Source: Blastocladiella emersonii ATCC 22665
Lineage: Eukaryota > Fungi > Blastocladiomycota
Direction of reading: 5' to 3'
Assembly: GCA_025594325.1 (NCBI GenBank)
Contig: JANHCV010000013.1
Span: forward strand, 930,001 to 994,000
Length of the DNA: 64,000 bases
The notes beneath the pieces are model-generated. The model saw only the letters and a list, made by a program, of their open reading frames with translations. It searched no databases and had not been told where the DNA came from. Of this stretch, positions 18,753 to 41,517 are shown piece after piece (position 1 is the stretch's first letter; each line of letters opens with the position of its first letter). The position numbers and the translations under genes are program-made.

Positions 18753-18778
18753 TGTCGTATCCCTTAAGGGATACGACA
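18753..18778. repeat. perfect 26-bp terminal palindrome TGTCGTATCCCTTAAGGGATACGACA
   Basis: TGTCGTATCCCTT is the exact reverse complement of AAGGGATACGACA; the same palindrome is at 41055-41080. Confidence 0.98.
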
Positions 18779-20229: not shown

Positions 20230-20606
20230 CTGTGTGGTCAATGAGCTTTGGTCTGTGCTGGTGTCCTGGTGTGGTCAATGAGCTTTGGTCTGCGTTGGTG
20301 TCCTGGTGTGTTGGTGTCCTGGTGTCCTGGTGTGTTGGTGTCCTGGTGTCCTGGTGTCCTGGTGTCCTGGTGTCCTGGTGTCCTGGTGTCCTGGTGTCCT
20401 GGTGTCCTGGTGTCCTGGTGTCCTGGTGTCCTGGTGTGCCGGTGTACTGTGTGGTCGATGAGCTTTGGTCTGTGCTGGTGTACTGTGTGGTTGATGAGCT
20501 TTGGTCTGTGCCGGTGTACTGTGTGGTCGATGAGCTTTGGTCTGTGCCGGTGTACTGTGTGGTTGATGAGCTTTGGTCTGTGCCGGTGTACTGTGTGGTT
20601 GATGAG
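20230..20606. repeat. tandem array: about 18 x 8-bp GGTGTCCT-type units, then about 4.5 x 36-bp units
   Basis: Read directly: GGTGTCCT/GGTGTGTT units at 20297-20440; GGTGTACTGTGTGGTYGATGAGCTTTGGTCTGTGCY units at 20441-20606. Confidence 0.95.
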
Positions 20607-21070
20607 TACTTGGCAATGATGCCCTGCTCCACACTGGAACTCCGATTAGTGGTTGGCCACCATGAAAGGAGACTCCAGTGTGGGGCAGTCTGGGGGCTGC
20701 CTGGCCAGCAGCTCCTGGACGGGGGCGGAGCACCCATTGCTACGTTATGTCATTGCGGGGGGCTGTGGTCACGTGACCAGTTGCCATGGACTGTTTGGTG
20801 GTGATGATGGAAGCGCGTTCAACGCACAAGTCTTTGACTTCTTCTCTGAGCCTTCAGTAATCCATGCGCCTGCATCCTTGACATCACTCCCCTGCCTCAG
20901 CCGCCGTGCGACCACTTGGAGCCACCTCGGTGGGTCTATGACAACCGGCTCCTGCTGGCCACGGTAGTTTACCCATGCTGTTGTCACATGTACACGTACC
21001 GCCGTAACAACTACTAAGTCTTTGGTCTTCAGTCTTCAAGGTAGCATTCACTGTTAACTTGAAGGGGCGC

Positions 21071-21414: not shown

Positions 21415-22161
21415 TCAGATGAACGCAAGCTCGATGTAGAAGGGTTGCCCCAGGAAGTCAACAGAGCGCAGGTTCTCGTCCACCACGTCAACGTCAATGG
21501 AGTCTATCAGCTGCGGTGTGCCTCGCGCGTCAAAGCGAAAGTAGTTGCTCATGTGTGGCCGGTGCTCGAACCAGCTCCCAAACGGCTGTGTGACATGGAT
21601 ACTGCACAGCACACCATTGTCCTGCGGGTACGCCAAGAACATGTTGTCCGCAAGGCAGCTGCCCAGGTTGCGCGAGTACACATGCAGCAGGTTGATGGGA
21701 GAGATGTTCACCAGAGACATCCCGTACTGGACCTTGCTGTAGCCGTAGCTGCCGACAAAGCCCATGTGCGTGTTCAGCGCAGCGGCCCCTGTCCCAACAG
21801 TGAAGTCGCAGGTGTCATTGGCAATGCGCATCTTCTGTGTGGTGGAGTCAACCTGCACGTCCCATGTGCCCTGCCACAGAAGACTTGACGGCGCGTTGTT
21901 GAGCAGGCTCTTGAGCGTTGACGTGAACGTCTCAACTGTGTAGTTGCCATCAGGGACAGTGATGGTCCCTGGGAAGGTCACACTGCCACGGCTCTGTGTC
22001 AGGTACACCTTGTTGGCCTTGGAGTTGACCACGTGCCAGCTGTTACAGAGGTACGCCAAGTTGACCTTGACGCCGCTCACAGACACGGCCCGCGGGAGGT
22101 ACAGCACACCGTTCTTGAGGTCGCGGCTGCAGATGGTCAGTGTCTTGTAGGAGCCAGTCAT
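21415..22161 (-). CDS. minor capsid (penton-like) protein
   Basis: 248 aa with LTICSRD, NSWHVVN, ITVPDGNYT and IDVDVVDENLRSVDFLG motifs typical of Polinton/PLV minor capsids; adjacent to MCP. Confidence 0.8.
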   Translation of the reverse strand: MTGSYKTLTICSRDLKNGVLYLPRAVSVSGVKVNLAYLCNSWHVVNSKANKVYLTQSRGSVTFPGTITVPDGNYTVETFTSTLKSLLNNAPSSLLWQGTWDVQVDSTTQKMRIANDTCDFTVGTGAAALNTHMGFVGSYGYSKVQYGMSLVNISPINLLHVYSRNLGSCLADNMFLAYPQDNGVLCSIHVTQPFGSWFEHRPHMSNYFRFDARGTPQLIDSIDVDVVDENLRSVDFLGQPFYIELAFI

Positions 22162-22488: not shown

Positions 22489-23709
22489 TTACTTGTAGAG
22501 GTTGACCTCGCCGGTTGGGAGGAACTTGTACACAATGTCAACACCAACAAAGGCGTCAACACGCTGGTTTGGGACAGTGTTTGAGGTGAGGATGATCTGC
22601 ATGTCCACGGCCTGGCTCTTGCAAGACTTGTCTCCACTGACAATGGTACGGGACAACTCAAGGTTGTGGCCAATGCAGAAGGTCCCCTCAGCTGGCACAT
22701 TGTACTTGTCCACTGACATGCCTGCACCAATGACATGGCCATGGAAGGCGTTGGACAGCTCTACAAAGGCCTCTGAAGCGTAGTCGTCACAGCAGACAGG
22801 CTTCTGGGGGAAGAGACGGCCACTAATGCTGAACTGGTATGTTGCAATGGTCTTGGCACGGAGGAACGAGTCCTTGGCATTGTCATTGAGCACTGCGTTG
22901 TTGCAGAACAACACCAGCACGTCCTTTTGTGACGCACTGCAGTCAGAGACGTTGAGCATAGAGTTGGGCACCGAGTAGTTGAGGGAGTGGTGGTTGTACG
23001 TTGTGCCGTAGAGCTTGAGACCCTGCTTCTTGAAGGCAGCGTCCATGACGGCGATCTGCTGGTCATTGAGCTTGATCAGGTCAGACACGATGCACACGTC
23101 CTTGACACTGTAGCTTGGGATGGCATTGTTCTTGACCACACAGGCATCTGCGCCAGGAGCCAGGGTGAACTTGACATGGATACCACCAAGGTACTTCATG
23201 GGCAGATGCTTCTGGTTGGACAGCAGTGCAGACTTGATGGGCAGCATGTACCGGTGAAGTCCAGATGACACAGCAAAGCGGTCAGCCCCAGTGGCAAAGT
23301 AACCCTGGGCCACGCCAAGGCATGAGTCCTTGAGGTGCTGTGGGACAGTCACGTCAGCCTCAATGCGCTGACGCAGGTTGAAGTAGGGAAGCTCTTCAAG
23401 CAGGGCTCCACCCGCGCTGTAGACTTGCACACGGTCAATGATGCTGAAGATGCCATCACAGAAGGCGACGTTGGCGTCTGCAGTCTTGGCACTGAACTGC
23501 AGGAACGTGCAGTGGGTGTCCATCATGTCATTGCGCGGGGGCAGGAGGACACTGATAGTGTTGCCAGGTGCAGACTCAGGGCCGCCCTGTGCAGTGAACT
23601 GGACAGTCTGACGCTCGGCATACACAGACTCCTTGGGCAGGTTAAACGTCATCTCTGGCGGCAGAGTCTTTGACAGGACCTGGGAGAACTGGGCATTGGT
23701 GGAAGACAT
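22489..23709 (-). CDS. major capsid protein (double jelly-roll, Polinton-like virus type)
   Basis: 406 aa, intact. ISVLLPPRNDMMD..CTFLQF, FSIIDRVQVYSAGGALLEEL..FN, YQFSISGRLFPQKP and FCIGHNLE match the PLV MCP pattern; clustered with minor capsid and ATPase. Confidence 0.88.
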   Translation of the reverse strand: MSSTNAQFSQVLSKTLPPEMTFNLPKESVYAERQTVQFTAQGGPESAPGNTISVLLPPRNDMMDTHCTFLQFSAKTADANVAFCDGIFSIIDRVQVYSAGGALLEELPYFNLRQRIEADVTVPQHLKDSCLGVAQGYFATGADRFAVSSGLHRYMLPIKSALLSNQKHLPMKYLGGIHVKFTLAPGADACVVKNNAIPSYSVKDVCIVSDLIKLNDQQIAVMDAAFKKQGLKLYGTTYNHHSLNYSVPNSMLNVSDCSASQKDVLVLFCNNAVLNDNAKDSFLRAKTIATYQFSISGRLFPQKPVCCDDYASEAFVELSNAFHGHVIGAGMSVDKYNVPAEGTFCIGHNLELSRTIVSGDKSCKSQAVDMQIILTSNTVPNQRVDAFVGVDIVYKFLPTGEVNLYK

Positions 23710-24312: not shown

Positions 24313-24486
24313 TGTAAGGTGCCGAGGGGGAGGGTCTTGTGCCACGAGGAATGACTAGCCGGATAATGAAGGATTGTATCACGAATGACAAGAGAGAGGG
24401 AGAGCGAGGGCAACGCTCGGCTTATGAGGGACTGCGCCACCAGCCCGCGCCACCAGCCCAAGCCGTTGGATCACTGAACCGTGACA
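24313..24486 (-). repeat. 3' LTR
   Basis: Direct repeat of 29460-29633 with 3 differences, all CpG transitions. Confidence 0.97.
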
Positions 24487-24506
24487 CTATCTCCCCTTCC
24501 CCCTCC
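24487..24506 (-). promoter_or_regulatory. polypurine tract
   Basis: GGAGGGGGAAGGGGAGATAG on the element strand, immediately 5' of the 3' LTR. Confidence 0.85.
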
Positions 24507-27500
24507 GCGGGTCGGGTTTTGACGGGTTCTGCGCGTGGAACTCGGCGAGCAGCTCGAGGTGCTTGAGGTTCGCGTACGGCTCCCAGGTGTTGTCGTCCTC
24601 GGGGCAGCCGTGCCACTTGAGCAGGTACTCGACGCTGCGGCCGACCTTGCGCGCGTCGCGGATCGCCTCGACTGTCCACTCCTCGTGCCCGTTGACGGCG
24701 TACGGCGTTGGCGGCGGCAGCGCGCGGCCCGGGAACGCCTCCTCGTCGTGCTCGTCGATCGGCTTGATGAGCGAGACGTGGAACACGGGATGGACGCGCG
24801 CCATGGTCGGCGGCAGCTCAAGCTCGACGGCCGATTTCCGGATGAGGCGCACGATCTTGAGCGGCTCCGTGTACTTGGGCCCGAGCTTGGCCTTGGGCAC
24901 GTTGACGCGCAGGTTCTTGGTGCTCAGCAGCACCATGTCGCCGACCTTGTAGTCGGGGCCCTCGCGGCGGCGGCGGTCAGCGTGCTTCTTGTACAGCTCC
25001 TTGGCGCGCTCGACCTTCTCGCGCAGCTTGCCCTGGACGTCGGCAATGCGCTTGGCCAGCGCGGCGGCTGACGGGACCCGATCCGACCGAACTGGCGCGG
25101 CCGAGAGCCGCTGGTCAAACGCGTAGTTGGCCTTGAACGGCGACATGCCCGTTGACTCGTTGACCGTGTTGTTGATGGCCATCTCGGCGTACCGCAGCAG
25201 CTCGGCCCAGTTTGACTGGTCCTCGTTGGCGAACATGCGCAGGTACACCTCGAGGGTCTGGTTCATGCGCTTGGTCTGCCCGTCGGTCTGCGGGTGGTAC
25301 GCCGTCAAGAGCTTGGCCTTGATCTCAAGCGACTTGCACATGGCCGACCAGAACCGCGACGTGGACTGCGACCCGCGGTCCGAGACGATGTCGTCGGGCA
25401 GCCCGTGCGGCCGCACCACGTGCTCAATGAAGGCGTCGGCGGTCGTGGCGGCCGTTGGGAGCGCGGCGAGCGGGATGAAGTGCGTCATCTTGGAGAACCG
25501 ATCGACGACGACCATGATGCAGGTGTGACCCTTGCTGCGCGGCAGGTCCGTGATGAAGTCCATGGAGATCGACGACCATGGCCGCGGCGGCGTGGGCAGC
25601 GGCTGCAGCTCGCCGTCAGGCCGGTGGCGCGGCACCTTGGCCCGCGCGCAGGTGAGGCACGACTTGACAAACCGCTCGATCACCTTGCGCATCCCGGGCC
25701 ACCAGTACGAGCGCGACACCTTCTCGATGGTGCGCTGGACGCCGAAATGACCGGCTACACGCGTCGCGTGCGCCTCCTTGATCACCCGGGTGCGCGCGAC
25801 GCCCAACGGTACGTACAGCCGGTCGTCTCGCCAAACGAAGCCGTCGAGGTCCATGGTGAGCGACGGGTGCTTGCCCGGGTTCCGCTGCATCGACTGCGCG
25901 AGCTCGTCCTCCGCCAGGCCGTCCCGAATCGCGGCGAGCACGTCGTCGCCCTGCGTGCCCGCGACGAGCGGCGCGCTGGCCGCGGCCGTGGCGGCCACCG
26001 TGAGCGCCGACGCGGGAACGACAGCGCGGCCGAGCATCGGGTTGTCAAACAGCTCGTAGTCGGCGCGGCGCGACAGCGCGTCGGCGCGCCCGTTGATTGC
26101 GCCGGGCCGGTACGTGAACCGGAACGAAAACCGCTCAAGGAACAGTGCCCACCGCGCGTGCCGCTGCGACTCGACCGTCATGGTGCGAAAGTGCTCAAGG
26201 TTCTTGTGGTCCGTGTACACCTCGACCGGGTGCTGCGCGCCCTCAAGGTGGTGGCGCCAGATCTCGAACGCGACCTTGATGGCGAGCAGCTCCTTATCCA
26301 AGATGGGATAATTCAGCTCCGCCGCCTTGAGCGCGCGCGAGTGGAACGCGACCGGCCGCAGCGTGCCCTCGTTGTCGACCTGCGACAGGACGCACCCAAT
26401 GGCGAAGTTGGACGCGTCGGCCTCGACAATGAACTGTTTTGAGGGGTCGGGGTGCGCGAGGAACTGGTCGGACGCGAACCGCGTCTTGATGGCCGCAAAG
26501 GCCGCCGCCTCGGTGTCGCCCCACCGCCACGGCGTGTCCTTCTGCGTAAGACGGGTGAGCGGGATGGTCAGTTCCGAGAACTCGGGGATGAAGCGGCGGT
26601 AGTAGTTGGCGAGGCTCAGGAACGCCTGCACCTCCTTGACCGTCCGTGGCGCGGGCCACTCGGTCACGGCGCGGACCTTGGCCGGGTCCATCTCGACGCC
26701 CTCGGTGGTCAGGATGTGGCCGAGGTACTCGACGCGCGTCACGTCGAATTCGCACTTCTCGAGCTTGACGTACAGCTTGTTGTCGGCGAGCCGCTGCAGC
26801 ACCTCCTTGACGAGCGCCGTGTGCTCTTCGGGGTCCTCGCTGAAGATGAGGATGTCGTCCAGGTACACGAGAACGCCGCGGCGGTCGAGCAGGTCGCGGA
26901 ACACGTCGTTGACAAACGCCTGGAACGCGGCCGGCGCGTTGGTCAGCCCGAACGGCATCACCATCCATTCATAATGTCCGTAGCGCGTGCGGAACGCCGT
27001 CTTCCACTCGTTGCCCTCGCGGATGCGGACCAGGTTGTACGCGCCGCGCAGGTCGAACTTGGTGAAGATGCGCGCGCCCTGCACTTGGTTCATGAGCTCC
27101 GCGATGAGCGGCAGCGCGTAGCGGTTCTTGACCGTCAGCGCGTTGAGGCGGCGGTAGTCCACACACATGCGGCGCGACCCGTCCTTCTTGGGCACGAACA
27201 TGATCGGCGCGCCGGCTGGCGACCGCGATGGGCGGATGAAGCCGCGCGCGAGGTTCTCGTCGATGGTCTTGCGCAGCTCCTCGAGTTCGGGCTGCGACAG
27301 GGCGTAGACGGGCAGGAACGGCACCTTGGCGCCCTCGACGAGCTCGATCTCGCAGTCGTACGGTCGGTGCGGCGGGAGCGCGGACGCCGCGGCGGCATCG
27401 AAGACGTGCGCCCACTTGAGGTACTTGGCGGGCAGCACGCGCTTCGGCGCCGCGTCATCTGGCGCCTCGGGCGGGCCGTGTGCCTCGTCCCACGCGAGCG

Positions 27501-28320
27501 GGTCGAGGTCGACGCGCGGTGCGACCGTGGCCACCGTGACGCGCTGGGCGGGCGGGCACCCGCAGCGACCAGTGCACGCGCCGTCAATCGCGACCGTGGC
27601 CGAGCGCGGATCCGGCTTCGCGCCGTTCGCGACCATCCATTCGAGTCCCATGATCACCGGAAACGCGGGAGAGTCGACGACGAGGAAGCGCGCGACCGAG
27701 CAATGAAGGCACGGAATGTCGATGGCGCGACCCGCGTCTCCCACCACGCGCTTCTGCTTGGACGCGTCGCCGGGAGGCACGACGCCGTCCGCGAACACGG
27801 TTTGGGATCCCGCGACCGCCGCGTGCAGGAATTCGGGCGACGTGACGGACACGGCCGCGTGCACGTAATGCGAGATGTACTGGCGCTGGCCCGGCGCGGA
27901 ACCGACGACACCGCGGAGGTCGATGCGACGCGCTAGGCGCTTTGGCACGAGCCCGGCCTGCTCGGCCACCCTGCGGCTGATCAGGTTAACCGGCGCGCCC
28001 GTGTCGAGCATCATGAACGTCGGGATCGGCGCCGTGCGGAGCCCTGGATGCGCGAGGAGCCCGCCGAGGTGCAGGTGGTCCTGCGCCATCTCTAGACGCA
28101 CAAGTGCACCAAAGTACGCAGCAACAGATTTTCCATTAGTCTTCTTATCATTCATGTTTTGTTTCTTCTTTTTGTTCATTTTTTTCTTCTTGTCGGCGGG
28201 CACCGACATCTTATCCGCGGCGGCGGCCGCCGTGGCCATCGCCGTTGTACCACCCAAATCCGCAGGTTTTGGCTTCGAGGACGTCGCGGCCTGCTCCGCT
28301 ACGCCCGACTGGCGTTTCCC
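24487..28320 (-). CDS. pol: Pol polyprotein (PR-RT-RNase H-IN-chromodomain), -1 frame relative to gag
   Basis: MLDTGA, YLDD, ADASNFAIG, H..H..C..C zinc finger, SMDFITD/SDRG, and C-terminal chromodomain WTVEAIRD...YLLKWHGCPEDDNTWEP. The integrase catalytic Glu is mutated (GQTKRMN). Confidence 0.95.
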   Translation of the reverse strand, partial: GKRQSGVAEQAATSSKPKPADLGGTTAMATAAAAADKMSVPADKKKKMNKKKKQNMNDKKTNGKSVAAYFGALVRLEMAQDHLHLGGLLAHPGLRTAPIPTFMMLDTGAPVNLISRRVAEQAGLVPKRLARRIDLRGVVGSAPGQRQYISHYVHAAVSVTSPEFLHAAVAGSQTVFADGVVPPGDASKQKRVVGDAGRAIDIPCLHCSVARFLVVDSPAFPVIMGLEWMVANGAKPDPRSATVAIDGACTGRCGCPPAQRVTVATVAPRVDLDPLAWDEAHGPPEAPDDAAPKRVLPAKYLKWAHVFDAAAASALPPHRPYDCEIELVEGAKVPFLPVYALSQPELEELRKTIDENLARGFIRPSRSPAGAPIMFVPKKDGSRRMCVDYRRLNALTVKNRYALPLIAELMNQVQGARIFTKFDLRGAYNLVRIREGNEWKTAFRTRYGHYEWMVMPFGLTNAPAAFQAFVNDVFRDLLDRRGVLVYLDDILIFSEDPEEHTALVKEVLQRLADNKLYVKLEKCEFDVTRVEYLGHILTTEGVEMDPAKVRAVTEWPAPRTVKEVQAFLSLANYYRRFIPEFSELTIPLTRLTQKDTPWRWGDTEAAAFAAIKTRFASDQFLAHPDPSKQFIVEADASNFAIGCVLSQVDNEGTLRPVAFHSRALKAAELNYPILDKELLAIKVAFEIWRHHLEGAQHPVEVYTDHKNLEHFRTMTVESQRHARWALFLERFSFRFTYRPGAINGRADALSRRADYELFDNPMLGRAVVPASALTVAATAAASAPLVAGTQGDDVLAAIRDGLAEDELAQSMQRNPGKHPSLTMDLDGFVWRDDRLYVPLGVARTRVIKEAHATRVAGHFGVQRTIEKVSRSYWWPGMRKVIERFVKSCLTCARAKVPRHRPDGELQPLPTPPRPWSSISMDFITDLPRSKGHTCIMVVVDRFSKMTHFIPLAALPTAATTADAFIEHVVRPHGLPDDIVSDRGSQSTSRFWSAMCKSLEIKAKLLTAYHPQTDGQTKRMNQTLEVYLRMFANEDQSNWAELLRYAEMAINNTVNESTGMSPFKANYAFDQRLSAAPVRSDRVPSAAALAKRIADVQGKLREKVERAKELYKKHADRRRREGPDYKVGDMVLLSTKNLRVNVPKAKLGPKYTEPLKIVRLIRKSAVELELPPTMARVHPVFHVSLIKPIDEHDEEAFPGRALPPPTPYAVNGHEEWTVEAIRDARKVGRSVEYLLKWHGCPEDDNTWEPYANLKHLELLAEFHAQNPSKPDPRRGKGR

Positions 28321-29404
28321 GACGACGAGCGCGGGGGCGACGGGCAATCAGCCGCCTTGTGGCCGTAGCCCTTGCAGTTGTAGCACTTGATGTCAGTGAG
28401 GGCGCGGCCCTGGTGCGCCGCCGCCCGCTGCCGAATCGCGCCAACGTCCATGGCGTCCGGGTCCGGGACGAGCTCGGCCGCGACGCCCATCGCCCCGCCC
28501 TCGTGCACCAGGAAGTGCTCGACCATCTTGTCAAAACGGTAGCCCTTGCGCAGCGAGGCGAAGGCCACGTCCGCGGCCAGCGGCGAGTTGCCGGCCGTGA
28601 CCACCAGGTAGAACTGCATCGCCAGCTCGCTGAGCGCGCGGTAGCCTGCACCGGACGCGGTCTGGCGGAACTTGGAGACGAAATCGCGCGCCGGCATGGC
28701 GCCGCGCACGTACTTGAGGTTCTTGAGCTCGTGCGCGTACTCGGTCTCCGACTTCTCGGCCGGCTGCGTTGACTTGACGAGGGAGATGTAGGCGTTGAAC
28801 GAGCCGTAGTCCTCAAACTTGGACCCGGCCATCGCCAGCTCCACGGCCTCGAGCACCTTGCCCGTTAGCTTGCCGTGGAAGTGCGCAATCTTGAACTTCT
28901 CCGGGACGTTGAACGTGAGCTGGAGGATGCTCTCGTACTGCGTGATGGCGCTCTTGACCTTGAAGTTGACGCCGTCAACCGAATTCATGCGCATCAGCGC
29001 GTGCATCGCGGCCGGCGTGAAGCCATCAACGCCCACGCCCGGCCCGCGCGCGCTGCTGACCTGGATGCTGTCGAGCTCGCCCTGCAGGATACCGTTGAGC
29101 GGCTGGCTCTGCTGCGTCTGCCGCAGCTCGACCTCGAGCGCATACGCGCGGCGCTCCGCCGTCTCGGCGCGCCGCTCGGCCGCGACCGCCGTCTCGGCGC
29201 GCCGCTCGGCCGCGACCGCGCGGGCCTCGGTCGACACGCCCAGTTGCCAGTAGTCGCTGGCGACGTTGAGCGCGAGGAAGACGAGCTTGGCTTTGTCCTC
29301 GTACGGCATGACCAGGTCGCGCCACGGCGCGAGCTGGTACTCGGGGACAATGGCCGCAACGTCAAACGTCGCCAGCTTTTCGAGGAACTGTGCCGGCGTT
29401 ATCA
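28299..29404 (-). CDS. gag: Gag with CCHC zinc knuckle
   Basis: CYNCKGYGHKAADC near the C-terminus; the first ATG downstream of the 5' LTR is MITPAQF. Confidence 0.85.
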
Positions 29405-29448
29405 TTTTGCCGTCGTGGAAGAAATCACCGCTCGGAGGGGGTTTTACG

Positions 29449-29457
29449 GTGATACAA
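29449..29457 (-). promoter_or_regulatory. candidate self-priming primer-binding site
   Basis: TTGTATCAC lies 2 nt downstream of the 5' LTR and is perfectly complementary to GTGATACAA inside the LTR (29521-29529); no TGG tRNA-type PBS. Confidence 0.65.
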
Positions 29458-29459
29458 AG

Positions 29460-29633
29460 TGTAAGGTGCCGAGGGGGAGGGTCTTGTGCCACAAGGAATG
29501 ACTAGCCGGATAATGAAGGATTGTATCACGAATGACAAGAGAGAGGGAGAGCGAGGGCAACGCTCGGCTTATGAGGGACTGCGCCACCAGCCCGCGCCAC
29601 CAGCCCGAGCCGTCGGATCACTGAACCGTGACA
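29460..29633 (-). repeat. 5' LTR
   Basis: 174 bp, TGTCAC...CTTACA on the element strand. Confidence 0.97.
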
Positions 29634-29904
29634 CAGGATCGCCTGTGAGGCAATGTACTCGTACTTGTCGTCAGCGTGGAAGGTGGGGTTGAAGACCCAG
29701 ATGTTGTCAAAGCGTCCCTTGTAGAACTGCGGGAAGCACACAAGGTTGGCGATCAGTGTTGACTTGCCCTGACCCTTGGCGCCAATGACGTTCATGGTGA
29801 AGGGGTGCTTGGGGATGGGCGAAGGCTGGTTGTCATTGTTCCTGGTGAAGCCGTTGTCAATGGCCACAATGTCGTACATCTTACTGTAACCCAAGACAAA
29901 AGGT

Positions 29905-30159: not shown

Positions 30160-31623
30160 TCAGATGAGCTGCTCCAGGTTGCTGGTGTCCAGGACCTGTG
30201 GCTGTGCTGGCGGCTGCATCGTGTCCAGCTTGCTGCCCAGGTCCTGGAGTGTCTTGTTCACAGCAGCATTGGACTCTGTCTGTCCCTGGATGGCGCTCTG
30301 GACACCTGTTGCAAGCTGGCCAATGAGTCCCTGCTGGTTGGTCAGGGCAGTTGACATGCCGCTTGCAATCTCAGACACCAGTGCACGGTTCCCTGCATCA
30401 ATCTGTCGCACAAAGGCGTTGCGCTCTGCATGCAGTGTGTCCACCATGTTAGCTGCAAGGTTGGCAAAGGTCTCAAGTGCCAGTCCTTGGGCGTTCTTGG
30501 ACTGCTCAATCAGGGCCATGTACGCCTGGTACTGCATGACCTGACTGTTCGCAAACTGGCCAGCAATGACATCCAGCGCAGCCATCACGTTGGGGTCGCT
30601 GTTGTACTGCACCATGATCTGTGTACGCAGGTCATTGTTCTGCTGGTAGTAGTTCTGCTCGTACTGCATGATGTACTGCCGCATGTCGTAGTTCTGTGTG
30701 TTGTCCTGCTGGAAGCTGCTGTAGACGTATTGATTGAACTGCTGAAAGTTCTGGACAATGTCAACCTCCATGTCATCTGTCGTGGTCAGTGCCCGCTCTG
30801 GGTTGTAGACCTGGATGTCCTTGGAGCCTTCAATCATCTGAGACTCGTCCATGGTGGGATGTACGTGTGTGTCATTGTACACAGAGCTGCGCTGTGGAAG
30901 GTCCTGTCCGTAGCTGGGAGGGACAACAACCAGGTTGCGTGTGCCATCGTTGAGCCGGGGTGGAAGGTCATTGCCGCCGTTGTTGTCATTCTGAATCAAG
31001 TAACGTCCAGGGATCATGCCAGCGTACTCTGGGATGTCCTGGCCAACGTAGTCACCAGCGTCCACAGGGTACTCTTCAGGGACAACTGGGCGGACAGGTA
31101 CAGGCAAGAGATGGTCAGGCACACGCTGCCCTGCTGTCTCAAGCATCTCAGCAAGTTTGTCCAAGGTGTCCTGTGGCCTCTGTGAGCCTATGCCAGAGTC
31201 TTGTGTGCTTAGGACGTCTGGTGTGTCTGCGCCTGTGTCAGAGTCTGGCGTGCCTTCCTGTGCAACAGGAACACGTTGGATGCCACTGCTAACGCTTGTG
31301 CTTGCTTGTTTGATGGTGTCATAGACGTGCTGCATGACGCTCTCTGAGTCTTGCCCCATGATCTCTCCATTGTGTCTCAGGAACAGCATCCCTGATTGCT
31401 TGCCCTCAAAGTCGTCTGCATAGCTCTCTGGTGTGACAGCGTAGTCAAAGGCAAGGATGTACGGGACCCACACAGTGAGGAACTCCTTGGCTGTGGGGAA
31501 AGTGTACGCGCGTCCATCAATGGTGGCCTTGATCCTCTGGCCAGGCATGCGCTCTGCAGTGATATGACTGTTTGTCTTGGCTGCAACGTCTTCCAGTTGC
31601 TTGGTGATGGGTCTTTGTGTCAT
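30160..31623 (-). CDS. viral protein of unknown function, Q/N-rich with likely coiled coil (about 487 aa from MTQRP)
   Basis: Long ORF with viral codon usage; ATG at 31623 is preceded by TTATTTTCGCTTCATACAGTAACCACC. Confidence 0.75.
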   Translation of the reverse strand: MTQRPITKQLEDVAAKTNSHITAERMPGQRIKATIDGRAYTFPTAKEFLTVWVPYILAFDYAVTPESYADDFEGKQSGMLFLRHNGEIMGQDSESVMQHVYDTIKQASTSVSSGIQRVPVAQEGTPDSDTGADTPDVLSTQDSGIGSQRPQDTLDKLAEMLETAGQRVPDHLLPVPVRPVVPEEYPVDAGDYVGQDIPEYAGMIPGRYLIQNDNNGGNDLPPRLNDGTRNLVVVPPSYGQDLPQRSSVYNDTHVHPTMDESQMIEGSKDIQVYNPERALTTTDDMEVDIVQNFQQFNQYVYSSFQQDNTQNYDMRQYIMQYEQNYYQQNNDLRTQIMVQYNSDPNVMAALDVIAGQFANSQVMQYQAYMALIEQSKNAQGLALETFANLAANMVDTLHAERNAFVRQIDAGNRALVSEIASGMSTALTNQQGLIGQLATGVQSAIQGQTESNAAVNKTLQDLGSKLDTMQPPAQPQVLDTSNLEQLI

Positions 31624-31661: not shown

Positions 31662-31804
31662 GGTACACTTTGCACCTGTCTGTGGTACACTTTGCACTGT
31701 CAAGGGTACACTTTGTACCTGTCTGTGGTACACTTTGTACCGTCAAGGGTACACTTTGCACCTGTCTGTGGTAAACTTTGTACCGTCAAGGGTACACTTT
31801 GTAC
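31662..31804. repeat. 7 copies of GGTACACTTTGYAC with alternating 8- and 7-bp spacers
   Basis: Read directly; lies between divergently oriented viral gene blocks. Confidence 0.95.
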
Positions 31805-32015
31805 GTTGTGCATTGCGCTTGGCATTGAGTGCCTTGTAGATGCGGATCTTGACGCGCTCTGCCCGTGCTGCCTCACTGTCAACGTGGACAAAGCGACTGG
31901 CCTTGCGGTCCCTCTTCTGTAGCCACTTGGCCTTGTCCTCGTCGCTCTTGTTGTACCAGTTGGATGGCACAGGGAAGGTCCCTGCAAGGTGTTCATGCCA
32001 CTCATCAAGGGACAT
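31743..32015 (-). CDS. possible small basic viral protein (90 aa)
   Basis: MSLDEWHEHL...KRNAQR looks coding, but its 3' end runs into the repeat array and the shared upstream motif is absent. Confidence 0.35.
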   Translation of the reverse strand: MSLDEWHEHLAGTFPVPSNWYNKSDEDKAKWLQKRDRKASRFVHVDSEAARAERVKIRIYKALNAKRNAQRTKCTLDGTKFTTDRCKVYP

Positions 32016-32058
32016 GTCCTGGTACTCTGAGCAATTCATTTCTTGCACTAAGTTAAAC

Positions 32059-33999
32059 ATGGTCAAGAATATATTCAACGTGTCTACCAACGTGTCACCA
32101 ACAGTGTCGGCCACAGGTGTCTCAGACGTGTCCACGGCATATGTTGATGGTGCCATCAGTGCTGTCTATGCCACAGTTGGTGCACCTGTCGCTGGGCCTG
32201 GACTCAGCGTGTCAGGGACAACTGTCTCTGCCAAGGTCAATGACCAGACACTGGGTGTTGGTCCAAGCGGTCTCTATGTCAAGTCAATCAGTACGGCCCA
32301 GCTCCTGCCAGCCAGCGTCACAGCAGACAAGCTTGTGAGTGTCACAGCTGCACAGGTCACAGGTAAGCTTGTTGATGCACAGCTGGACACTGTGTCAGCA
32401 TCCAAGGTCACTGGTGTGCTCAGTGCGTCCAACCTTCCAGCGCTTGGGACAACGTCCATTGCAGATGGCTCTGTGACAGACGCCAAGGTTGCCTCAGTGT
32501 CCAGGTCCAAGCTGGTTCTGGGGACCGTCAACACAGCAGCTCTTGCAGACACCTCCATGACAGACGCCAAGGTTGTCTCAGTGTCTGGGTCCAAGCTGGT
32601 TGCAGGAAGTGTCTCAACACCTGCTCTTGCAGACGCCTCAGTGACAGATGCCAAGGTTGCGTCTGTGTCCGGGTCCAAGCTGGTTCCAGGGACTGTCAGC
32701 ACAGCAGCACTTGCAGACACCGCAATAACAGATGTCAAGGTTGCCTCAGTGTCTGGGTCCAAGCTGGTTCCAGGGACTGTCAGCACAGCTGCCCTTGCAG
32801 ACGCTGCTGTCACCAACGCCAAGCTGGCCACTGGTATAGACGGTGCAAAGCTCAACGTGTCATCTGTGGGAACAGCACACCTTGCAGCAGGGTCAGTCAC
32901 CGATGCCAAGGTCACAGATGTGTCTGCCACCAAGCTGACAGGGACGCTTGATCCTGCACGCATTGCAGACAGTTCACTGACCAATGCCAAGCTGGCCACT
33001 GGGATAGACGCTGCCAAGTTGTCTGGGACCATTGACCTTGCACGACTGCCTGACGTGTCCAGCAAGGTGTCAAGTGTCAACGGAGCCATTGTCACTGGGA
33101 CGCTCCCCCAGTCCACCCTTGGACTTGGCAGTGTCTTTACATTTGCCAGTACTGTGGACAGCACATCGACGTCCACTGGGGCAGTCACTGTGGCAGGTGG
33201 CCTTGGTGTGGGCAAGCAGCTCACTGTGCCAAACGTCCTTGTCCGGAACACAGTCAGTGCAAATGTGGTCTTTGACTCTGCTGCCAACACACTCACATAC
33301 ATTGACTTCAAGCAAGCAGGTGTCCTGAAGAGCAACCTGGCATGCACTGCACTGGGCACCATTGAGATCGCTTCAGCAACTAATGGTGGCGTGTCCTTGG
33401 CTGCAGGTGGAGGGAATGTTGTCATTGGCTCAGCGACGCTTGGCACAGAAAAGCTCCATGTCAAAGGCACTGGTCGCTTCACAGGGCAGCTCACCCTTGA
33501 CCTCGCTCCAGTGGCAGGCACCGATGCAGCAAACAAGGCATACGTTGACTCGCGGTCTGGCACAACCCGGTACATCGCTCAGGCCAAGCACCGCTCTACA
33601 AATGGAGTGACCACGGGCGGCAAGATCATTGGCGGCACAGCATCAACGGGCCCAGCCACCTTTGCATTCCAGTCCACGGCGGGTGCGTTCATGTCTGTGA
33701 TCAATGGATGCGTCAAACCCCCTGTCAGTGGCTACTACCTTGTCCATGCAAAGGGCTATTACGCAAACGGCACGCTCCCTGGAGCCCACACTGTGAACTT
33801 TGCGCTGTACAATATGACGGACATGATTGCAGTGTCACTTGTCACCGGGTGCCGCGCTGAAGGCAACGTCCAGTTCCTTCAGTTCTCGAGCATTGAGTAC
33901 CTTGACGCGGCCAAGAGCTACTCTTTCATCTGGATCCCATCGGTCGCAGTTGCCAACGACTGCCAGGTCATCATTCAAAGCCACTGGACCCTGCTCTAA
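32059..33999 (+). CDS. fibre / tail-fibre-like protein (646 aa)
   Basis: Repeated ~25-aa units (ALADTSVTDAKVASVSGSKLVPGTV), phage-fibre-like EKLHVKGTGRF and PVAGTDAANKAYVD, and a C-terminal beta-rich head (PPVSGYYLV). Confidence 0.7.
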   Translation: MVKNIFNVSTNVSPTVSATGVSDVSTAYVDGAISAVYATVGAPVAGPGLSVSGTTVSAKVNDQTLGVGPSGLYVKSISTAQLLPASVTADKLVSVTAAQVTGKLVDAQLDTVSASKVTGVLSASNLPALGTTSIADGSVTDAKVASVSRSKLVLGTVNTAALADTSMTDAKVVSVSGSKLVAGSVSTPALADASVTDAKVASVSGSKLVPGTVSTAALADTAITDVKVASVSGSKLVPGTVSTAALADAAVTNAKLATGIDGAKLNVSSVGTAHLAAGSVTDAKVTDVSATKLTGTLDPARIADSSLTNAKLATGIDAAKLSGTIDLARLPDVSSKVSSVNGAIVTGTLPQSTLGLGSVFTFASTVDSTSTSTGAVTVAGGLGVGKQLTVPNVLVRNTVSANVVFDSAANTLTYIDFKQAGVLKSNLACTALGTIEIASATNGGVSLAAGGGNVVIGSATLGTEKLHVKGTGRFTGQLTLDLAPVAGTDAANKAYVDSRSGTTRYIAQAKHRSTNGVTTGGKIIGGTASTGPATFAFQSTAGAFMSVINGCVKPPVSGYYLVHAKGYYANGTLPGAHTVNFALYNMTDMIAVSLVTGCRAEGNVQFLQFSSIEYLDAAKSYSFIWIPSVAVANDCQVIIQSHWTLL

Positions 34000-35136: not shown

Positions 35137-36273
35137 TTACTGAGGCGTCATGTAGTAGGTCAGGGCAACAGGGACGCTGTGACCCATCTCGTGTGCGCGG
35201 TCAGCAATAGCTTGCTGCGCGGCAAAGTTCTCGCTGGTGGAGATACGGCGGATCACTGCCACGCCGCCATCCTCAAAGCCGACCGTCTTTGCAGCCCGAC
35301 TAATCGACGTACACCAGGTGCTGCTAACCCTCTTGCGGAGCGTGGTGTCCTTGAGCTCCTCGAGGGTGTAGTTGTTGAAGACAAAGTCATGACCTTCGGC
35401 GAGACGCTGGGCGAGGATACGCTTGAGAGCGGCGGCGACCTTGGGCTCACTAACTGTGTGCGAGAAGTTGTAGCCACAGCCCTCTGTCTTGACAATGACA
35501 TCGCCGGCCAGAATCTGGGTCTCTGGGTCGTAGTACGGGTACCCAGTGGTTGGCTTTGTGGTCAGGAACGCAGGGTCGGAGCGCACCACACTCACAACTT
35601 GGAGGTACAGACGCAGGAGCCCTGTGCCCAAGCCCTTTGCATCAACAATAGCGGCGCAAATGGCGTCACGGCTTGGGAGCGCACCAGACTCGAGTTCCTT
35701 GCGCGCGTCGCAGAAGTCGGCAGCGTCCTGCTTCTTGGCCTCTGTGTACTTGGCCCCGAGTTCGGTCCACCCGTTCCAGGTGCAGTACTTGGCCAGGGCC
35801 TTGAGCGTCTCAACCTGCAGCCCCTGCTCGCCCTTGGACGCGCGGTACGCTGCCACAGCTTTGGACACGGCGTCAACGTCTTCAATGTCCATGCCCGACT
35901 TGGCAAAGGCACAGAGCACGCGGGATGTCTTGGCCTTGTCCGTGTTGCTCAGCTTGGCCAGTTCCCCGTGCTTGTTCTGAACACGCGCATTGACGCACGC
36001 CGCAATGGATTCCTCGGTCATCTGCGCGTACTTGACCTGGGGATCAGTGTCCATGGGTTTGCCAGACTCGTTGGCGGGGGTGTGATTGGAACTGTGATTG
36101 CAGTCACGTGACACTGCAGCCAGCGCGGCGAGGCTGGTCTCAATTCCCTTGAGCCGCTCATCAAAGGATGCCAGCAGCGGCTTGATACCATCGAGCACTT
36201 GGTGCACTACGTCGGCGGCAATGTGCTGAGCAACAACCTTGGACACCTGGGACACGAGCGCTTCGAGAGACAT
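35137..36273 (-). CDS. tyrosine recombinase-family protein (378 aa)
   Basis: C-terminal catalytic signature: VVRSD (R), VKTEG (K), AVIRRIS (R), AHEMGHSVPVALTYY (H, with Y eight and nine residues downstream). Confidence 0.75.
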   Translation of the reverse strand: MSLEALVSQVSKVVAQHIAADVVHQVLDGIKPLLASFDERLKGIETSLAALAAVSRDCNHSSNHTPANESGKPMDTDPQVKYAQMTEESIAACVNARVQNKHGELAKLSNTDKAKTSRVLCAFAKSGMDIEDVDAVSKAVAAYRASKGEQGLQVETLKALAKYCTWNGWTELGAKYTEAKKQDAADFCDARKELESGALPSRDAICAAIVDAKGLGTGLLRLYLQVVSVVRSDPAFLTTKPTTGYPYYDPETQILAGDVIVKTEGCGYNFSHTVSEPKVAAALKRILAQRLAEGHDFVFNNYTLEELKDTTLRKRVSSTWCTSISRAAKTVGFEDGGVAVIRRISTSENFAAQQAIADRAHEMGHSVPVALTYYMTPQ

Positions 36274-36362: not shown

Positions 36363-36857
36363 ATGTGCGACAACGATGACTCGCCCAGTCCTCTTGGACG
36401 TCTGCTGCTGGACATCCACAACTGCACAGGCAAGGTGGTCGACCTGAGCCAGATGAAAGCCTTGACCATGGACGCTGTGCGCAAGCAATGGCTGGGTGAC
36501 AACGAGTCTCTGACAGAGGCCATGAAGACGCTGCGTGTTGCTACTGCCCGTCTTGCTGTGTTGCAGCAAGTGAGAGGGAAGCCTGCAAAGACACAGGAGG
36601 TGTATGGTGAAGGGCCCATTTGCGACCTCCTGTGCTACTATGGCTCAAAGAAGGACCAGGACGCTGTCGTTGACTTTGCCCAGCTTGAGCAAGACTACCC
36701 TCTGGACACGTCAGAGTGGGATGCCATCAAGAGAGAGTACCATGACTGGCTTGTCCGACAGTCCATGATGCGTCTTGCTGAGCTGTGTGTCCGGACAGAC
36801 CGCAAGAAGAAGAAGAAGGTCAAGTTTGAGAGCGACTCGGACTACAGCAGCGCGTAA
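36363..36857 (+). CDS. viral hypothetical protein (164 aa)
   Basis: ORF with viral codon usage; ends in a basic KKKKK stretch (possible NLS). Confidence 0.6.
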   Translation: MCDNDDSPSPLGRLLLDIHNCTGKVVDLSQMKALTMDAVRKQWLGDNESLTEAMKTLRVATARLAVLQQVRGKPAKTQEVYGEGPICDLLCYYGSKKDQDAVVDFAQLEQDYPLDTSEWDAIKREYHDWLVRQSMMRLAELCVRTDRKKKKKVKFESDSDYSSA

Positions 36858-36871
36858 ACGCACCATGGACA

Positions 36872-37021
36872 CAGGCCAACAACACAATGCACAGGACAGG
36901 CCAAGGACACAATGCACAGGGCAGGCCAACGACACAATGCACAGGGCAGGCCAACAACACAATGCACAGGGCAGGCCAACGACACAATGCACAGGGCAGG
37001 CCAACGACACAATGAACAGGG
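36872..37021. repeat. 6 x 25-bp tandem repeat CAGGCCAACRACACAATGCACAGGG
   Basis: Read directly; intergenic, upstream of the primase-helicase. Confidence 0.95.
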
Positions 37022-37159
37022 TCTACAGACCACCCACCTTACCTTTGCACAGGACAACTGCAATGGTAACTGAACACAGAGCTGGGGCTGTAGCGATACT
37101 GCCAAACGCATTAAACGCGCGCTCCCCCTCACCTTTTTCTGCTGCCTCATCCTAACAAG

Positions 37160-40122
37160 ATGGTCTACAAGCTTGCAAGCACGTCCTTTGGTCTCCAGTG
37201 GTACTCGGGCAAGGACGGTGACGACAAGGACATGGGCCCTCAGCGCTACGTGCTGTCGACGCTCAAGGACAACAAGCTTGTGGTCAAGCGTCTGGTCAAC
37301 AAAGGCGTCAATCAAACGGCAAAGACAAGGAGGCCCACCACTTTGCCAAGGTCAAGCCCGAGAAGCTGGTGGAGATCCTCAACAGGAACCACTGCATCCA
37401 GGAGATGGTCCACCCGGACCGTCTGTCCAAGGTGTACTTTGACGTGGACTTTAACCGCGACTGTGGCGACGTGACGCTGGACGAGGTCAAAGCGGTGATC
37501 ATGGACCAGTTCCCCAGCGCTAATCTCCAGATCTGTGGCTACGAGACTGACCAGAAGAAGTCGTGGCACATTGTCCTCAGCAACTACACGGCTACATTCA
37601 AGGAGCTCGAGCTCGTCAAGCTGTTCTGCATGCAGTACTCTGCCCTTGGCTTTGACGCCAAGGTGTACACGGCGAACCGGTTCATGAAGTGCATCAACCA
37701 GTCCAAGCCCAAGAAGACGCCAGGCGTGTACATTGAAGGTTCACGCGAGGTGTCCAAGCACCTGATCCAGGTCAACTTTGACGACAACTGTGTGTCTGTG
37801 TCCACGCTGTCCTTTGACGCGTTGATGTCAGACAAGGCCAAGGCCGCCGTGGCCAAGGGTCGCCGTGTTGACTTTACCACGGACATTCCCGAGTTCAAGG
37901 ACGTCACCATTGACCCTGACTTCTTCTTCTACGACGCGGCGCCGCTGCAGATCCTGCACAACCTCCCAGTGAGCCCGGACAATGCGTTTAGCAACGACGT
38001 GACGTGGCGGATCATGACCTGGGCACTCCGCCGTGGTCTGACCTTTGCCAAGTTCTGGGCGTGGACATCACAGCAGGACGACTCGGTGCAGCGCATGCAC
38101 AAGTACCAGCAGCGGTGGGCCGAGATTGAGGGCAACAACAAGTACCAGGTCCGCAACGGGTTCATGGAGGGCATCTTCTACGCCCACTTCCCAAGCGCTC
38201 TCAAGTCCAAGGCCCTGAAGCTGTTCAACGCGTCTCTTTGTGTCCCGGCCACCAAAACCAGCCCTAACCAGTGGCTGACCTGCGACGACATCACGCCCGC
38301 CAAGTTCAACGTGCTGGCCACTGGCATGGGATCCAGCAAGACGGGTGCGGTGTGCTCGTACATTGCCAAGTTCCCCGACGCCCGTGTGGTCTGGATCACG
38401 CCGCGCATCACTCTGACCCACAACACGGAGGGTTGACTGGTAAAAGAAGGCCTCGGCTTTGTCAACTACCGCAATGTCAAGAACAAGAAGGCCATGGGCT
38501 CGCACAAGCGCCTTGTGATCTCGCCGTGCTCCCTGCACTACATCACAGAGCCCTACGACATGGTCGTGGTGGACAAGTCGGAGACCGTGCTGCAAATGTT
38601 CCTGGATGACAAGCTGCACACAACGACGGGCAAGAACAACCTTCTCGCCAACTTGCTCGCCTTCAAGACGCTGTGCGAGAATGGCCGTGGTATCTTCATG
38701 GACGCGTTTGTCACTAACCTGACCATGGACGTCCTGCGCTCCTTTGAGGTGGCACCAACCATTCCCAACCAGCTCTGTGGTATGGTCGAGTTCCGCAGTA
38801 AGATCGAGGTCATCAAGAACACGCTGCCCAACACCTTTAAACCGCGCAAGATGACGTACATTGCCAGTAAGCCGCACCTTGAGCTCAGCGCCGAGGACAT
38901 CATGGAGCGGAACATTATCGCCGACCTGCGCGCTGGCAAGAAGCTGTACGTGTTCATCCCCCGCAAGCACGACAACAACTCCATCTGGGCGGTGCAGAAG
39001 TTTGGCGAGTACCTTGAGAAGGTCATGGACTGGAAGATTGGCAACCAGATCAAGGTGTACCACAGCGGGCGCCCCAAACACGAGAACAAGGAACTCGAGA
39101 ACCCTGACACCGCGTGGGGCTTGGACAATGTCCGCGTGGTCATCTTGAACCTCAAGATCACTGTGGGCGTCAACTTCTCGACGGAGAAGGTCTTCCACAA
39201 GGTCTACGCGCGCTACGAGTCCTGGTTCTCTGCGCGCAACTTCATCCAAGGCGTGTTCCGTGTCCGCCACCCCATCGACAACAAGATTGTGTTCATGACG
39301 TGCAAGGGCAATCGCAGCAAGTACCTCAAGCGCACCAAGGTCATCAACGTGGCCCCTGTCGGCGAGCTGCACCAGGCGATTGTCAAGAATGCGATGCTTG
39401 AGCGCGAGATGGCCGCTGTGTCCGCTCGCTACAAGGTCTTTGACTCGTTCCGCAAGCTTGCAGGGGTTGTCATTGACAACTGCCCCGACTACTACTACGA
39501 AGTCGACCCCAAGGTCAAGGTCGTGCTCGAGTCTGGCTGGTCCTTTGAGTGGAAGAACATTGAGCCGGCCAAGGACGACACAATGCAGGCGTACAGTGAC
39601 AAGGTCCTTGACGCGCCTGACTGGAAGACGTGGCTGTCGATCCGCAAGTCCTTCTTCATGTCGACGTTCAAGGGGCTGAGCGAGAAGCAGATGAGCGTCA
39701 TCTGGGACAACAACTCGGAGGACTTTATGGAGACGATCAAGCACTTTTACACCAAGGACACGGACCACGTCCTGCACACCCTCCTCGCGCACAACAAGAT
39801 GGATCTCCGCACAGCCACCAAGTTCAACGTCCAGGCTGTGGTCCCTGCTGCGTTTGGCAACGACATCAAGCGCTGGTACAAGCAGCTGACCCGCAAGGCC
39901 TGTGGCAACGCGACTCTACTCTCCAGCCTGCTCAACAAATACTTTGGCAAGAAGATTGTCCGAGTCGACCCCAAGCAGCGTCAAGTGATGATCGACTACA
40001 AGCCCTACCCCAACTTGTCATGGACAGACAACTACGAGCTCTTCAAGATGTACATCGACTGGACAACCACCCCGCAGCAGTCCCTGACCTTTACGCTGAA
40101 CCTGGACGACGACAAGCTCTAA
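37160..40122 (+). pseudogene. PrimPol (AEP)-SF2 helicase fusion, disrupted by a frameshift near 37310 and an in-frame TGA at 38434-38436
   Basis: AEP motifs YFDVD, KKSWH and FDAKVY..NRFMK; helicase motifs TGMGSSKT, WITPRITL, VVDKSE, TVGVNF and FIQGVFRVR (origin-binding-protein-like). ORFs 37369 and 38494 are in the same frame. Confidence 0.85.
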
Positions 40123-41080
40123 GACACCCCACGACCGCCTGTGTCCATGACCTGCTCCCCGACCTGTTCCGTAAACGAGTCAACTGCTGTTCGCTGCTGT
40201 TCGCCCTTCTCTCTCACTCCCAAACCAGAGACCTATCACCGTGGCACATCCCCTTGTCCATCAAAACCGTCTATGTACTTATACACCATGGGGCAAAATG
40301 ATGGACAAGGGGATGCGGCGCGGTGATAGGTTCATAGCTGTTGCTCGCGGCAGGTGGTCAGGGACAGCTCTCGGACTTCCACAGATCAACTCTCAGACAG
40401 CTCGCAGCTATTCGCTCTCTCCCTTCACTCCCAAACCAGAGACCTATCACCGTGGCACATCCCCTTGTCCATCAAAACCGTCTATGTACTTATACACCAT
40501 GGGGCAAAATGATGGACAAGGGGATGCGGCGCGGTGATAGGTTCATAGCTGTTGCTTGCGGCAGGTGGTCAGGGACTGGCTCACAGACTGATCGTTGACT
40601 GCTCACAGATGGACTCTCAGCTGTGCTCAGGGACCAGACCAGGGATCCGCACAGTGGGTAGCCGCAGCTGCGCTGCTCTTTGTCTCGCTTCGCTCGCCGC
40701 CCCCCGCCCACCACCCGGGGTAAGCAATGGTCAGCCCGAGCGGTTGGTCAGGGACGGGCTCGGGGACTTGCCCGCAGATCGACTCGCAGATCGACTCGCA
40801 GATCGACTCGCAGATCGGGTCCACGCGCCGTTCATCTGCACGTGATCCACGTGACCCGCCCGCCACCCCTCTCCCTCCGGCCTTCGGCCTCCGCCCGCGT
40901 GTCGTGTTCCCTAAGGGAATGCGACATATGGCATACGACATATTATTAACCACCCGGGGTAAGCAACTGGGTCTCACGTGGTTAGCCCAAGTGACTGCCC
41001 GCCGACTGCTCGGGGTAAGCAATTGGTCAGCCCGAGTGGTAGTGGGTCAGCCCATGTCGTATCCCTTAAGGGATACGACA
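40059..41080 (-). repeat. right terminal inverted repeat (1022 bp), ending in the 26-bp palindrome at 41055-41080
   Basis: Reverse complement of 18753-19774; includes the last ~20 codons of the primase-helicase. Confidence 0.97.
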
Positions 41081-41517
41081 CAAGGCAACACCATCGCCGT
41101 CCGCCAAAAATTCTAGTTTTTCGCCCGGAAAATGCAAGACTGACGATTGCTTAGACTCGTTAAACGCAAGGACGTTGAGGATAATGCGGCGCATGTCATC
41201 CCAGGTACTCTCGTCGTTGGAGTCCACATGCAGGCCTTCATCGGAAGCGGGAGTTGAAAGCGTCAGCATGAAGTTTCGCCGGCACGAGAGGTTGGCGGCA
41301 CCCAACGAGGTCCCGTCGACCATCATGTGCCCCGCCAGGATCCCTCCTGCTCTTGGTCAAAAATTGAGAAGGACACACCTGCAAGTGGTTTGCTGGAAGT
41401 CTTTTCATTCGCTTGCATGATGTGGTCGAGTTTTGCAGGCAGGATCGGAAGGCGAGGCGGGCGAACGAGGCGAAGAACGTCCTCGCTCTGAACTGCCTTG
41501 CGCCACACCGTGATCAC
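41081..41517 (-). pseudogene. 5' part of the Ty3-derived paralogue interrupted by the virus
   Basis: Shares ITVWRKA/MQANEK with the start of 16083-18302. DDMRRIIL..L..NE..QS...PGE..EF..DGDG aligns with DDPVRAAIL..L..DE..QS...PGE..DF..DADG. Confidence 0.65.

Follow-up and report, generated by a model that had tools for sequence, protein, structure and literature searches.

The open reading frame at 35137-36273 of the window (the whole 64,000-nucleotide stretch of Blastocladiella emersonii DNA that was analysed) is predicted from its sequence and from structure modelling to encode a virus-type tyrosine recombinase, and comparison of motifs appears to place this enzyme outside the protelomerase family. 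The gene belongs to a polinton-like provirus, the present copy of which is defective. We tentatively propose, as a reading that is possible rather than probable, that a tyrosine recombinase of non-protelomerase type uses the 26-bp palindrome at the ends of the provirus as its site, recombines the two ends, and releases the element.

Terminal palindromes and the pairing of an rve integrase with a recombinase are each separately known. New here is an element of the polinton-like virus (PLV) type in a blastoclad fungus that has both enzymes, palindromic ends, and a recombinase family lacking both the HxxR histidine and the alphaN helix. The exit of proviruses that carry a retroviral-type integrase and no protein-primed polymerase has so far been unexplained. 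Because the element combines a small enzyme with a candidate site of 26 bp, one gel assay could separate recombination, hairpin formation, and nicking, and a recombination or hairpin result would supply the excision step for the virophages and PLVs that carry rve plus recombinase.

Organization of the provirus and its ends

The provirus, its terminal sequences, and its genes were located as follows.

18753-41080: provirus with TG...CA ends, 22,328 bp (17,006 bp without the nested gypsy retroelement)
18748-18752 (+) and 41081-41085 (+): left and right copies of the 5-bp target-site duplication CAAGG
18753-19774 (+): left terminal inverted repeat, 1022 bp, with a single mismatch against the right one
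40059-41080 (-): right terminal inverted repeat, 1022 bp
18753-18778: perfect palindrome of 26 bp at the left end, TG...CA, directly abutting the target duplication
41055-41080: right terminal perfect palindrome, 26 bp, same sequence as the left one
18907-18933, mirrored at 40900-40926: internal degenerate copy of the palindrome, 27 bp, with 3+3 mismatches and one extra central base
40191-40576, mirrored at 19257-19642: pair of 175-bp repeats with a spacing of 211 bp, both containing 33-bp inverted arms around a 35-bp spacer
21415-22161 (-): probable minor capsid protein, named from size and position, no family match
22489-23709 (-): probable double-jelly-roll major capsid protein, 406 aa
23753-29879 (-): A32-like packaging ATPase in two pieces, with an LTR retroelement between them
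24313-29634 (-): chromodomain Ty3/gypsy retroelement, 175-bp LTRs 98% alike, with its own 5-bp duplication
31840-33999 (+): fibre-like repeat protein, 719 aa
33996-35108 (-): rve-type DDE integrase, 370 aa, with D89, D148, and E179
35137-36273 (-): divergent tyrosine recombinase, 378 aa, reading frame unbroken
37112-40122 (+): probable primase-helicase gene in three pieces, with one frame change and one in-frame stop

The PLV features found in the element were the A32-like ATPase and the terminal inverted repeats. The C-terminal piece of the ATPase matched Pox_A32 with 26.8 bits (cut-off 22.8), and the N-terminal piece had an E-value of 0.034. The gypsy retroelement sits within this ATPase gene, and its pol and gag frames are apparently open. 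The major capsid candidate had feature scores of 0.97–0.98 to clusters in which DJR/NCLDV capsid families occur in 10–24% of the members; its recognition value was 1994, under the 2300 mark, and its single-sequence fold had a pLDDT of 31. The integrase matched Pfam rve with an E-value of 6e-7 and 30.1 bits, below the cut-off of 32.6. The primase-helicase label is based on Walker-like motifs judged by eye, and the pieces of this gene that were tried had no family match in Pfam, PHROGs, or PDB sequences. Of the 14 element ORFs scanned with Pfam, none matched pPolB or a protease family. ORFs without a family match were located at 30160-31623 (487 aa) and 36363-36857 (164 aa), the latter between the recombinase and primase-helicase genes, and short tandem arrays with units of 8, 36, 21–22, and 25 bp lie between element genes at 20218-20614, 31662-31804, and 36847-37046.

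The closest proteins were hypothetical proteins of B. emersonii with 56–97% identity (20 sequences in 7 clusters, plus 5 more). No related locus was found when viral contigs were scanned with the recombinase alignment, the integrase, the integrase alignment, the capsid, and the exact palindrome, and none was found in metagenome contigs. As for the surroundings of the provirus, a second gypsy pol fragment, which is degraded, lies directly to its left (16083-18233). Two related host genes (11465-12901 and 62461-63768) show patches of about 70% similarity, and weak ankyrin matches were obtained for the first; both genes have a 32-bp upstream motif in common, a third copy of which is present at 63967.

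The original prediction spoke of a terminal palindrome of 26 bp, and a perfect, symmetric palindrome of this length, which is a size used by enzymes of this kind, is indeed present at both ends. The longest perfect palindromes arising by chance in 30 order-1 resamples of the window were 14–20 bp, compared with the 26 bp observed. The 6-bp centre is self-complementary, and the inner edge of the palindrome reads CA, then TG. The internal degenerate copy lies 154 bp inward of each end; such pairs occurred in 0 of 200 resamples, and this copy may represent a former end or an additional binding site. The 175-bp repeats with inverted arms constitute a candidate replication origin. A third half-site look-alike of the palindrome was noted at 18893, and positions 40920-40937, near the internal copy, varied among the copies represented in contigs. 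Outside the element, another perfect palindrome, 24 bp in length, is present at 1136-1159, with neither TG...CA ends nor an obvious flanking duplication.

Other copies were represented in four contig sets (X1–X4) from one sample. Loose ends exactly behind position 41080 were observed in five contigs of X2 and two contigs of X3, with flank agreements of 0.51 and 0.60, respectively. Since these loose ends fall at one CA and have differing flanks, several insertions end there, as expected for a DDE integrase. Together with the TG...CA ends and the 5-bp duplication, the mixed flanks bear out the earlier proposal that the DDE enzyme carried out the integration.

In X1, the contigs over the fibre, integrase, and recombinase genes and the outer part of the repeat were short, branched, and deep, including a 230-nt contig inside the recombinase gene with a depth of 1,256, and a 2,424-nt unbranched contig over the helicase had a depth of 154, like the flank. 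The inner part of the repeat also had a low contig depth, like the primase-helicase gene. Contig depth is not copy number, so that the pattern hints only weakly at a recombinase that remains tied to the integrase and at a replicase and inner repeat that differ from copy to copy. The low depth shared by the inner repeat and the primase-helicase gene echoes EMALE04, in which the helicase version is linked to the repeat sequence (PMC10945749). No joint skipping the whole recombinase gene was present among the 15 of 16 joints listed. A low-depth contig of X4 had a loose end behind 41069, and its right palindrome arm differs from that of the present copy. None of the four sets had a strand-change joint at the right end, which carries no weight for or against hairpin ends because contigs are unable to reveal them.

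Catalytic residues, fold, and family placement of the recombinase

The original prediction described an intact R-K-R-H-Y signature next to an intact DDE integrase. All five residues are present in the recombinase (R231, K262, R342, H365, and Y374), and the integrase gene, with its catalytic triad complete, follows downstream on the same strand after a gap of 28 bp. The five-residue description stands, but it omitted the histidine of HxxR, which is replaced here by Ala339, aligned to H244 of XerD; across an eight-row alignment, this position is occupied by Ala, Gln, or Arg. K262, the MGH365 motif, and Y374 show no variation across the 17 family rows; in the present recombinase a further Tyr, Y373, directly precedes Y374. 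R231 is kept in the seven rows of the eight-row alignment that cover it, and R342 in seven of the eight, the exception being a Gln in the fragment P0009. The H-to-Y spacing of 9 is the same as in XerA/XerCD, Cre, and lambda Int. All 17 family rows end 2–7 residues past the catalytic Tyr (four residues in this recombinase), compared with 14–24 residues in five of five reference recombinases, and the alphaN helix is therefore missing.

Homologues of the recombinase were found among B. emersonii proteins, together with one Logan protein at 25% identity; the full profile search yielded two further B. emersonii proteins and the Logan protein. P0011, a protein of 3,652 aa with 32 matching stretches, was dropped as a repeat artefact. 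The recombinase subfamilies show 97, 80, 60, and 37% identity. The recombinase itself had no family match in Pfam, PHROGs, or NCBIfam and no informative match among PDB sequences. PF00589 weakly matched two of eight relatives, with a best E-value of 0.0049. The catalytic residues are kept down to 25% identity, in agreement with the tyrosine-recombinase fold that had been assumed for this protein.

In the structure model (pLDDT 74.5), long N-terminal helices (residues 1–57, low confidence) are followed by a core-binding domain (approximately 83–197) and a catalytic domain (approximately 198–378). A wide fold search gave XerA (Z 10.3, rmsd 12.6, 239 aligned residues), SroF (Z 9.2, rmsd 5.3, 246 aligned), XerH (Z 8.8, rmsd 6.1, 257 aligned), and Cre (Z 8.6, rmsd 7.0, 229 aligned). 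The ranking in a second search was similar, with XerH at Z 9.6 (rmsd 3.5, 145 aligned). Topoisomerase IB was level with the recombinases at Z 9.0–9.1 (for Z 9.0, rmsd 4.5 and 150 aligned), and Z values of 8–10 are middling for a mostly helical model. Residues 82–199 matched isolated core-binding domains of the lambda-Int type at Z 6.0–6.2. No telomere resolvase was among the best 50 matches in either VIA fold list (cut-offs Z 5.1 and 6.3), an absence that excludes nothing.

Foldseek gave TM-scores of 0.37, 0.29, and 0.24 for Cre, TelA, and TelK, respectively; TelA ranked 12th (E-value 0.024) and TelK 35th. Among the viral models of BFVD, the top named matches came from giant viruses and a virophage (Heterosigma akashiwo virus, Aureococcus virus, Harvfovirus, and Qinghai Lake virophage) and were either recombinases or uncharacterised proteins, with E-values of 5e-6 to 3e-3 and 9–17% identity; the EhV-86 resolvase ranked 28th, and VLF-1 models ranked 35th and 49th. 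Language-model neighbours fell into Preplasmiviricota clusters, in one of which 16% of the members carry PF00589. Profile comparison with XerD/XerC/Int/Cre gave an E-value of 0.0065 in register, and that with five telomere resolvases gave 0.5 out of register, the profiles being small in both cases.

The motifs of telomere resolvases were examined in TelN, TelK, ResT, and the VP882 and VP58.5 enzymes, with TelA added by structure alignment. The five aligned resolvases all have GRRxxE, RAI, and an Asp located seven positions ahead of the Tyr, and TelA likewise has GRRxxE and this Asp. RAI is missing from the recombinase family. GRRxxE is absent at the first catalytic Arg of the recombinase family, where the seven covering rows have RSD or RGD. 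The resolvase Asp (D398 in TelA, D328 in ResT, and D418 in TelK) is also absent, the corresponding residue of the recombinase being Val367, and no acidic residue occurs at H+1 to H+5 in any of the 17 family rows. XerD also has an Asp at this position, so the presence of Asp alone would not be diagnostic. The C-terminal extension past the Tyr comprises 114–215 residues in the five resolvases and 37 in TelA, compared with the 2–7 residues of the recombinase family. The label "protelomerase-like" is not upheld: fold and profile appear to lie nearer to Xer/Cre/Int and to virus recombinases, and the resolvase motifs examined are absent.

The Asp is required for hairpin formation in TelA and ResT, and is described as conserved in resolvases and not in recombinases at large; without it, TelA shifts to recombination between palindromic sites, and one or two substitutions switch TelA between hairpin formation and recombination (PMC12270096, PMC13221069). 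Since so few substitutions change the product of TelA, neither fold nor sequence decides the type of reaction.

Possible roles of the recombinase at the terminal palindrome

Retroviral-type (DDE) integrases are not known to excise a repaired provirus, and an excision route is therefore wanted. In the proposed recombination, the palindrome would be bound by a recombinase dimer, with arms of about 10 bp on either side of the 6-bp centre. Strand exchange between the palindromes at the two ends would then release a circle whose junction holds a single palindrome, and another single palindrome would stay behind in the chromosome between the duplicated bases; the junction of the circle could also be used to enter a helper giant virus. 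For the return, the DDE integrase would nick after the CA at each edge of this single palindrome, or 13 bases from a fold-back tip, the ends would be joined to host DNA at positions staggered by 5 bp, and fill-in would copy the palindrome to both ends. Integrase nicking followed by fill-in would thus explain the flush terminal palindromes without a hairpin-making enzyme. We infer that the palindrome points to a donor with a fold-back end or a palindromic junction, without naming the enzyme that makes this donor.

This recombination is consistent with the Xer/Cre-like fold, the in-register profile, and the giant-virus and virophage recombinases among the best viral folds. It is also consistent with the lack of the resolvase Asp in 17 of 17 rows, considering that TelA turns to recombination without it (PMC12270096, PMC13221069), and with the occurrence of rve plus recombinase without pPolB in EMALE types 5–8 (PMC8547959). 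The contig pattern, in which the recombinase seems to stay with the integrase and the ends and not with the replicase, gives a weak hint in the same direction.

Several observations argue against it. XerA deprived of alphaN cleaves without recombining (PMC3646895); the missing alphaN and the replaced HxxR His therefore count against recombination and leave room for hairpin formation or nicking-closing. The recombinase gene is 4.8 kb from the nearest end of the element, and the fold matches are middling, with topoisomerase IB equally high. Because its centre is symmetric, the palindrome lacks the directionality of loxP. According to the original prediction, related elements that retain palindromic ends but have no recombinase would speak against it. 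PLV subtype 4 of Halocafeteria seosinensis, which is palindromic with no recombinase called, appears to be such a case, and no PLV there combines RVE and Yrec in the available part of that report (bioRxiv 10.64898/2026.07.28.741278), so that the element may not need the enzyme. In subtype 4, however, a recombinase of similar divergence to the present one, which has no Pfam match, may have been overlooked, or the enzyme may be supplied in trans.

An unlikely alternative is that the enzyme has become a hairpin-telomere resolvase by convergence, a dimer cutting both strands across the centre of the palindrome and resealing each on itself. A hairpin-ended genome would thereby be excised and replication dimers resolved, and the DDE integrase would insert the genome by nicking 13 bases from the tips. 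The palindrome is perfect, and its self-complementary 6-bp centre is what resolvases require (PMC3558466); with CA/TG at the inner edge of the palindrome, a fold-back end would present CA to the integrase. In addition, the ORFs scanned included no pPolB that could solve end replication, the control normally exerted by the tetramer is gone without alphaN, and TelA and the EhV-86 resolvase appear among the structural matches. The ease with which TelA changes its reaction makes the fold indecisive (PMC12270096, PMC13221069), and phaeoviruses are eukaryotic viruses with resolvase-type hairpins (PMC13236599). These points are countered by the absence of GRRxxE, RAI, the resolvase Asp, and the C-terminal extension from the recombinase family and by the higher TM-score for Cre than for TelA and TelK. 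The published palindromic ends of Halocafeteria PLV subtype 4, with no called recombinase (bioRxiv 10.64898/2026.07.28.741278), and the Holliday-junction resolvases of helper viruses, which may be alternative hairpin makers (PMC13236599), also count against a convergent resolvase. In its general form, this reading would hold that in PLVs and virophages without pPolB a stripped-down tyrosine recombinase of non-protelomerase descent excises a hairpin-ended genome that the DDE integrase re-inserts by nicking, which we likewise consider doubtful. If true, it would mean that telomere resolution arose a second time and that excision and integration form a cycle run by two enzymes.

It is similarly doubtful that the recombinase is unrelated to the palindrome and acts as a second integrase with another attachment site, used for entry into giant-virus genomes, the palindrome serving the integrase and replication system alone. 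Such a second integrase has been put forward as the likely role in virophages that carry both enzymes (PMC8547959, PMC4642659, bioRxiv 10.64898/2026.07.28.741278). In Halocafeteria, the palindromes are associated with replicases other than pPolB and with certain RVE integrases rather than with Yrec (bioRxiv 10.64898/2026.07.28.741278), and a recombination hotspot of PgVV adjoins its recombinase gene (PMC4642659). However, among the 25 longest of 215 inverted-repeat pairs, none lies beside the recombinase gene, the natural junction of a circular donor would be the palindrome itself, and the missing alphaN weighs against this role as well.

Less probable still is a nicking-closing or genome-processing accessory, similar to topoisomerase IB or baculovirus VLF-1, that acts in replication or packaging without completed strand exchange: the tie of topoisomerase IB with the recombinases, the VLF-1 models among the viral matches, the cleavage by alphaN-less XerA (PMC3646895), and the correlation of recombinases with AEP/PolA replicases across polisuviruses (bioRxiv 10.64898/2026.10.13.758929) are in its favour, but the recombinase retains a core-binding domain of the lambda-Int type, and the contigs weakly hint that it does not travel with the replicase of the present copy.

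Comparison with known systems

In the literature searched, with most subscription papers outside its scope, we found no link between a recombinase and a palindrome in polintons or PLVs, no protelomerase or telomere resolvase linked to a polinton, and no polinton linked to Blastocladiella. The nearest published case is that of H. seosinensis, in which terminal palindromes occur in virophage subtypes 1, 2, 5, and 6 as well as PLV subtype 4 (bioRxiv 10.64898/2026.07.28.741278). These virophages and PLV subtype 4 resemble the present element in having palindromes beside the target duplication, an RVE integrase, mostly non-pPolB replication, and proposed hairpin ends. In the available part of that report, RVE and Yrec occur together only in some virophages and in no PLV, whereas both are present here in a PLV-type element. 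The palindrome shown there is 52 nt long, with hairpins proposed as primers and Yrec proposed for giant-virus integration, compared with 26 bp here.

The mid-GC EMALEs 5–8 of Cafeteria burkhardae are similar in carrying rve and a tyrosine recombinase, no pPolB, and a long primase/helicase, as well as nested retroelements, target duplications of short length, and inverted repeats of roughly 1 kb (PMC8547959). They differ in having a virophage capsid module with a protease, and the main text of that paper names neither a palindrome nor a hairpin. All EMALE types without pPolB are described as carrying rve plus recombinase (PMC8547959), indicating that the combination recurs. The tyrosine recombinases of OLV11-like and other PLVs, virophages, and giant viruses share the fold class and the host range of the element with the present enzyme, but those PLVs are mostly without RVE, unlike the element described here (PMC4642659). 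A recombinase related to those of PLVs has been suggested to resolve dimers at entomopoxvirus ends (PMC11296320).

TelN, TelK, TelA, ResT, and the phaeovirus resolvase share with the recombinase the tyrosine chemistry, a palindromic target with a symmetric centre (a candidate target in the present case), and a residue other than His at HxxR. As described, their sites are internal or replicated junctions, whereas the palindromes here are the ends of the provirus. XerA/XerCD, Cre, and lambda Int are alike in combining a core-binding and a catalytic domain and are the best PDB matches. The present recombinase differs from them in lacking the HxxR His and alphaN and in having an extra N-terminal helical arm in some copies.
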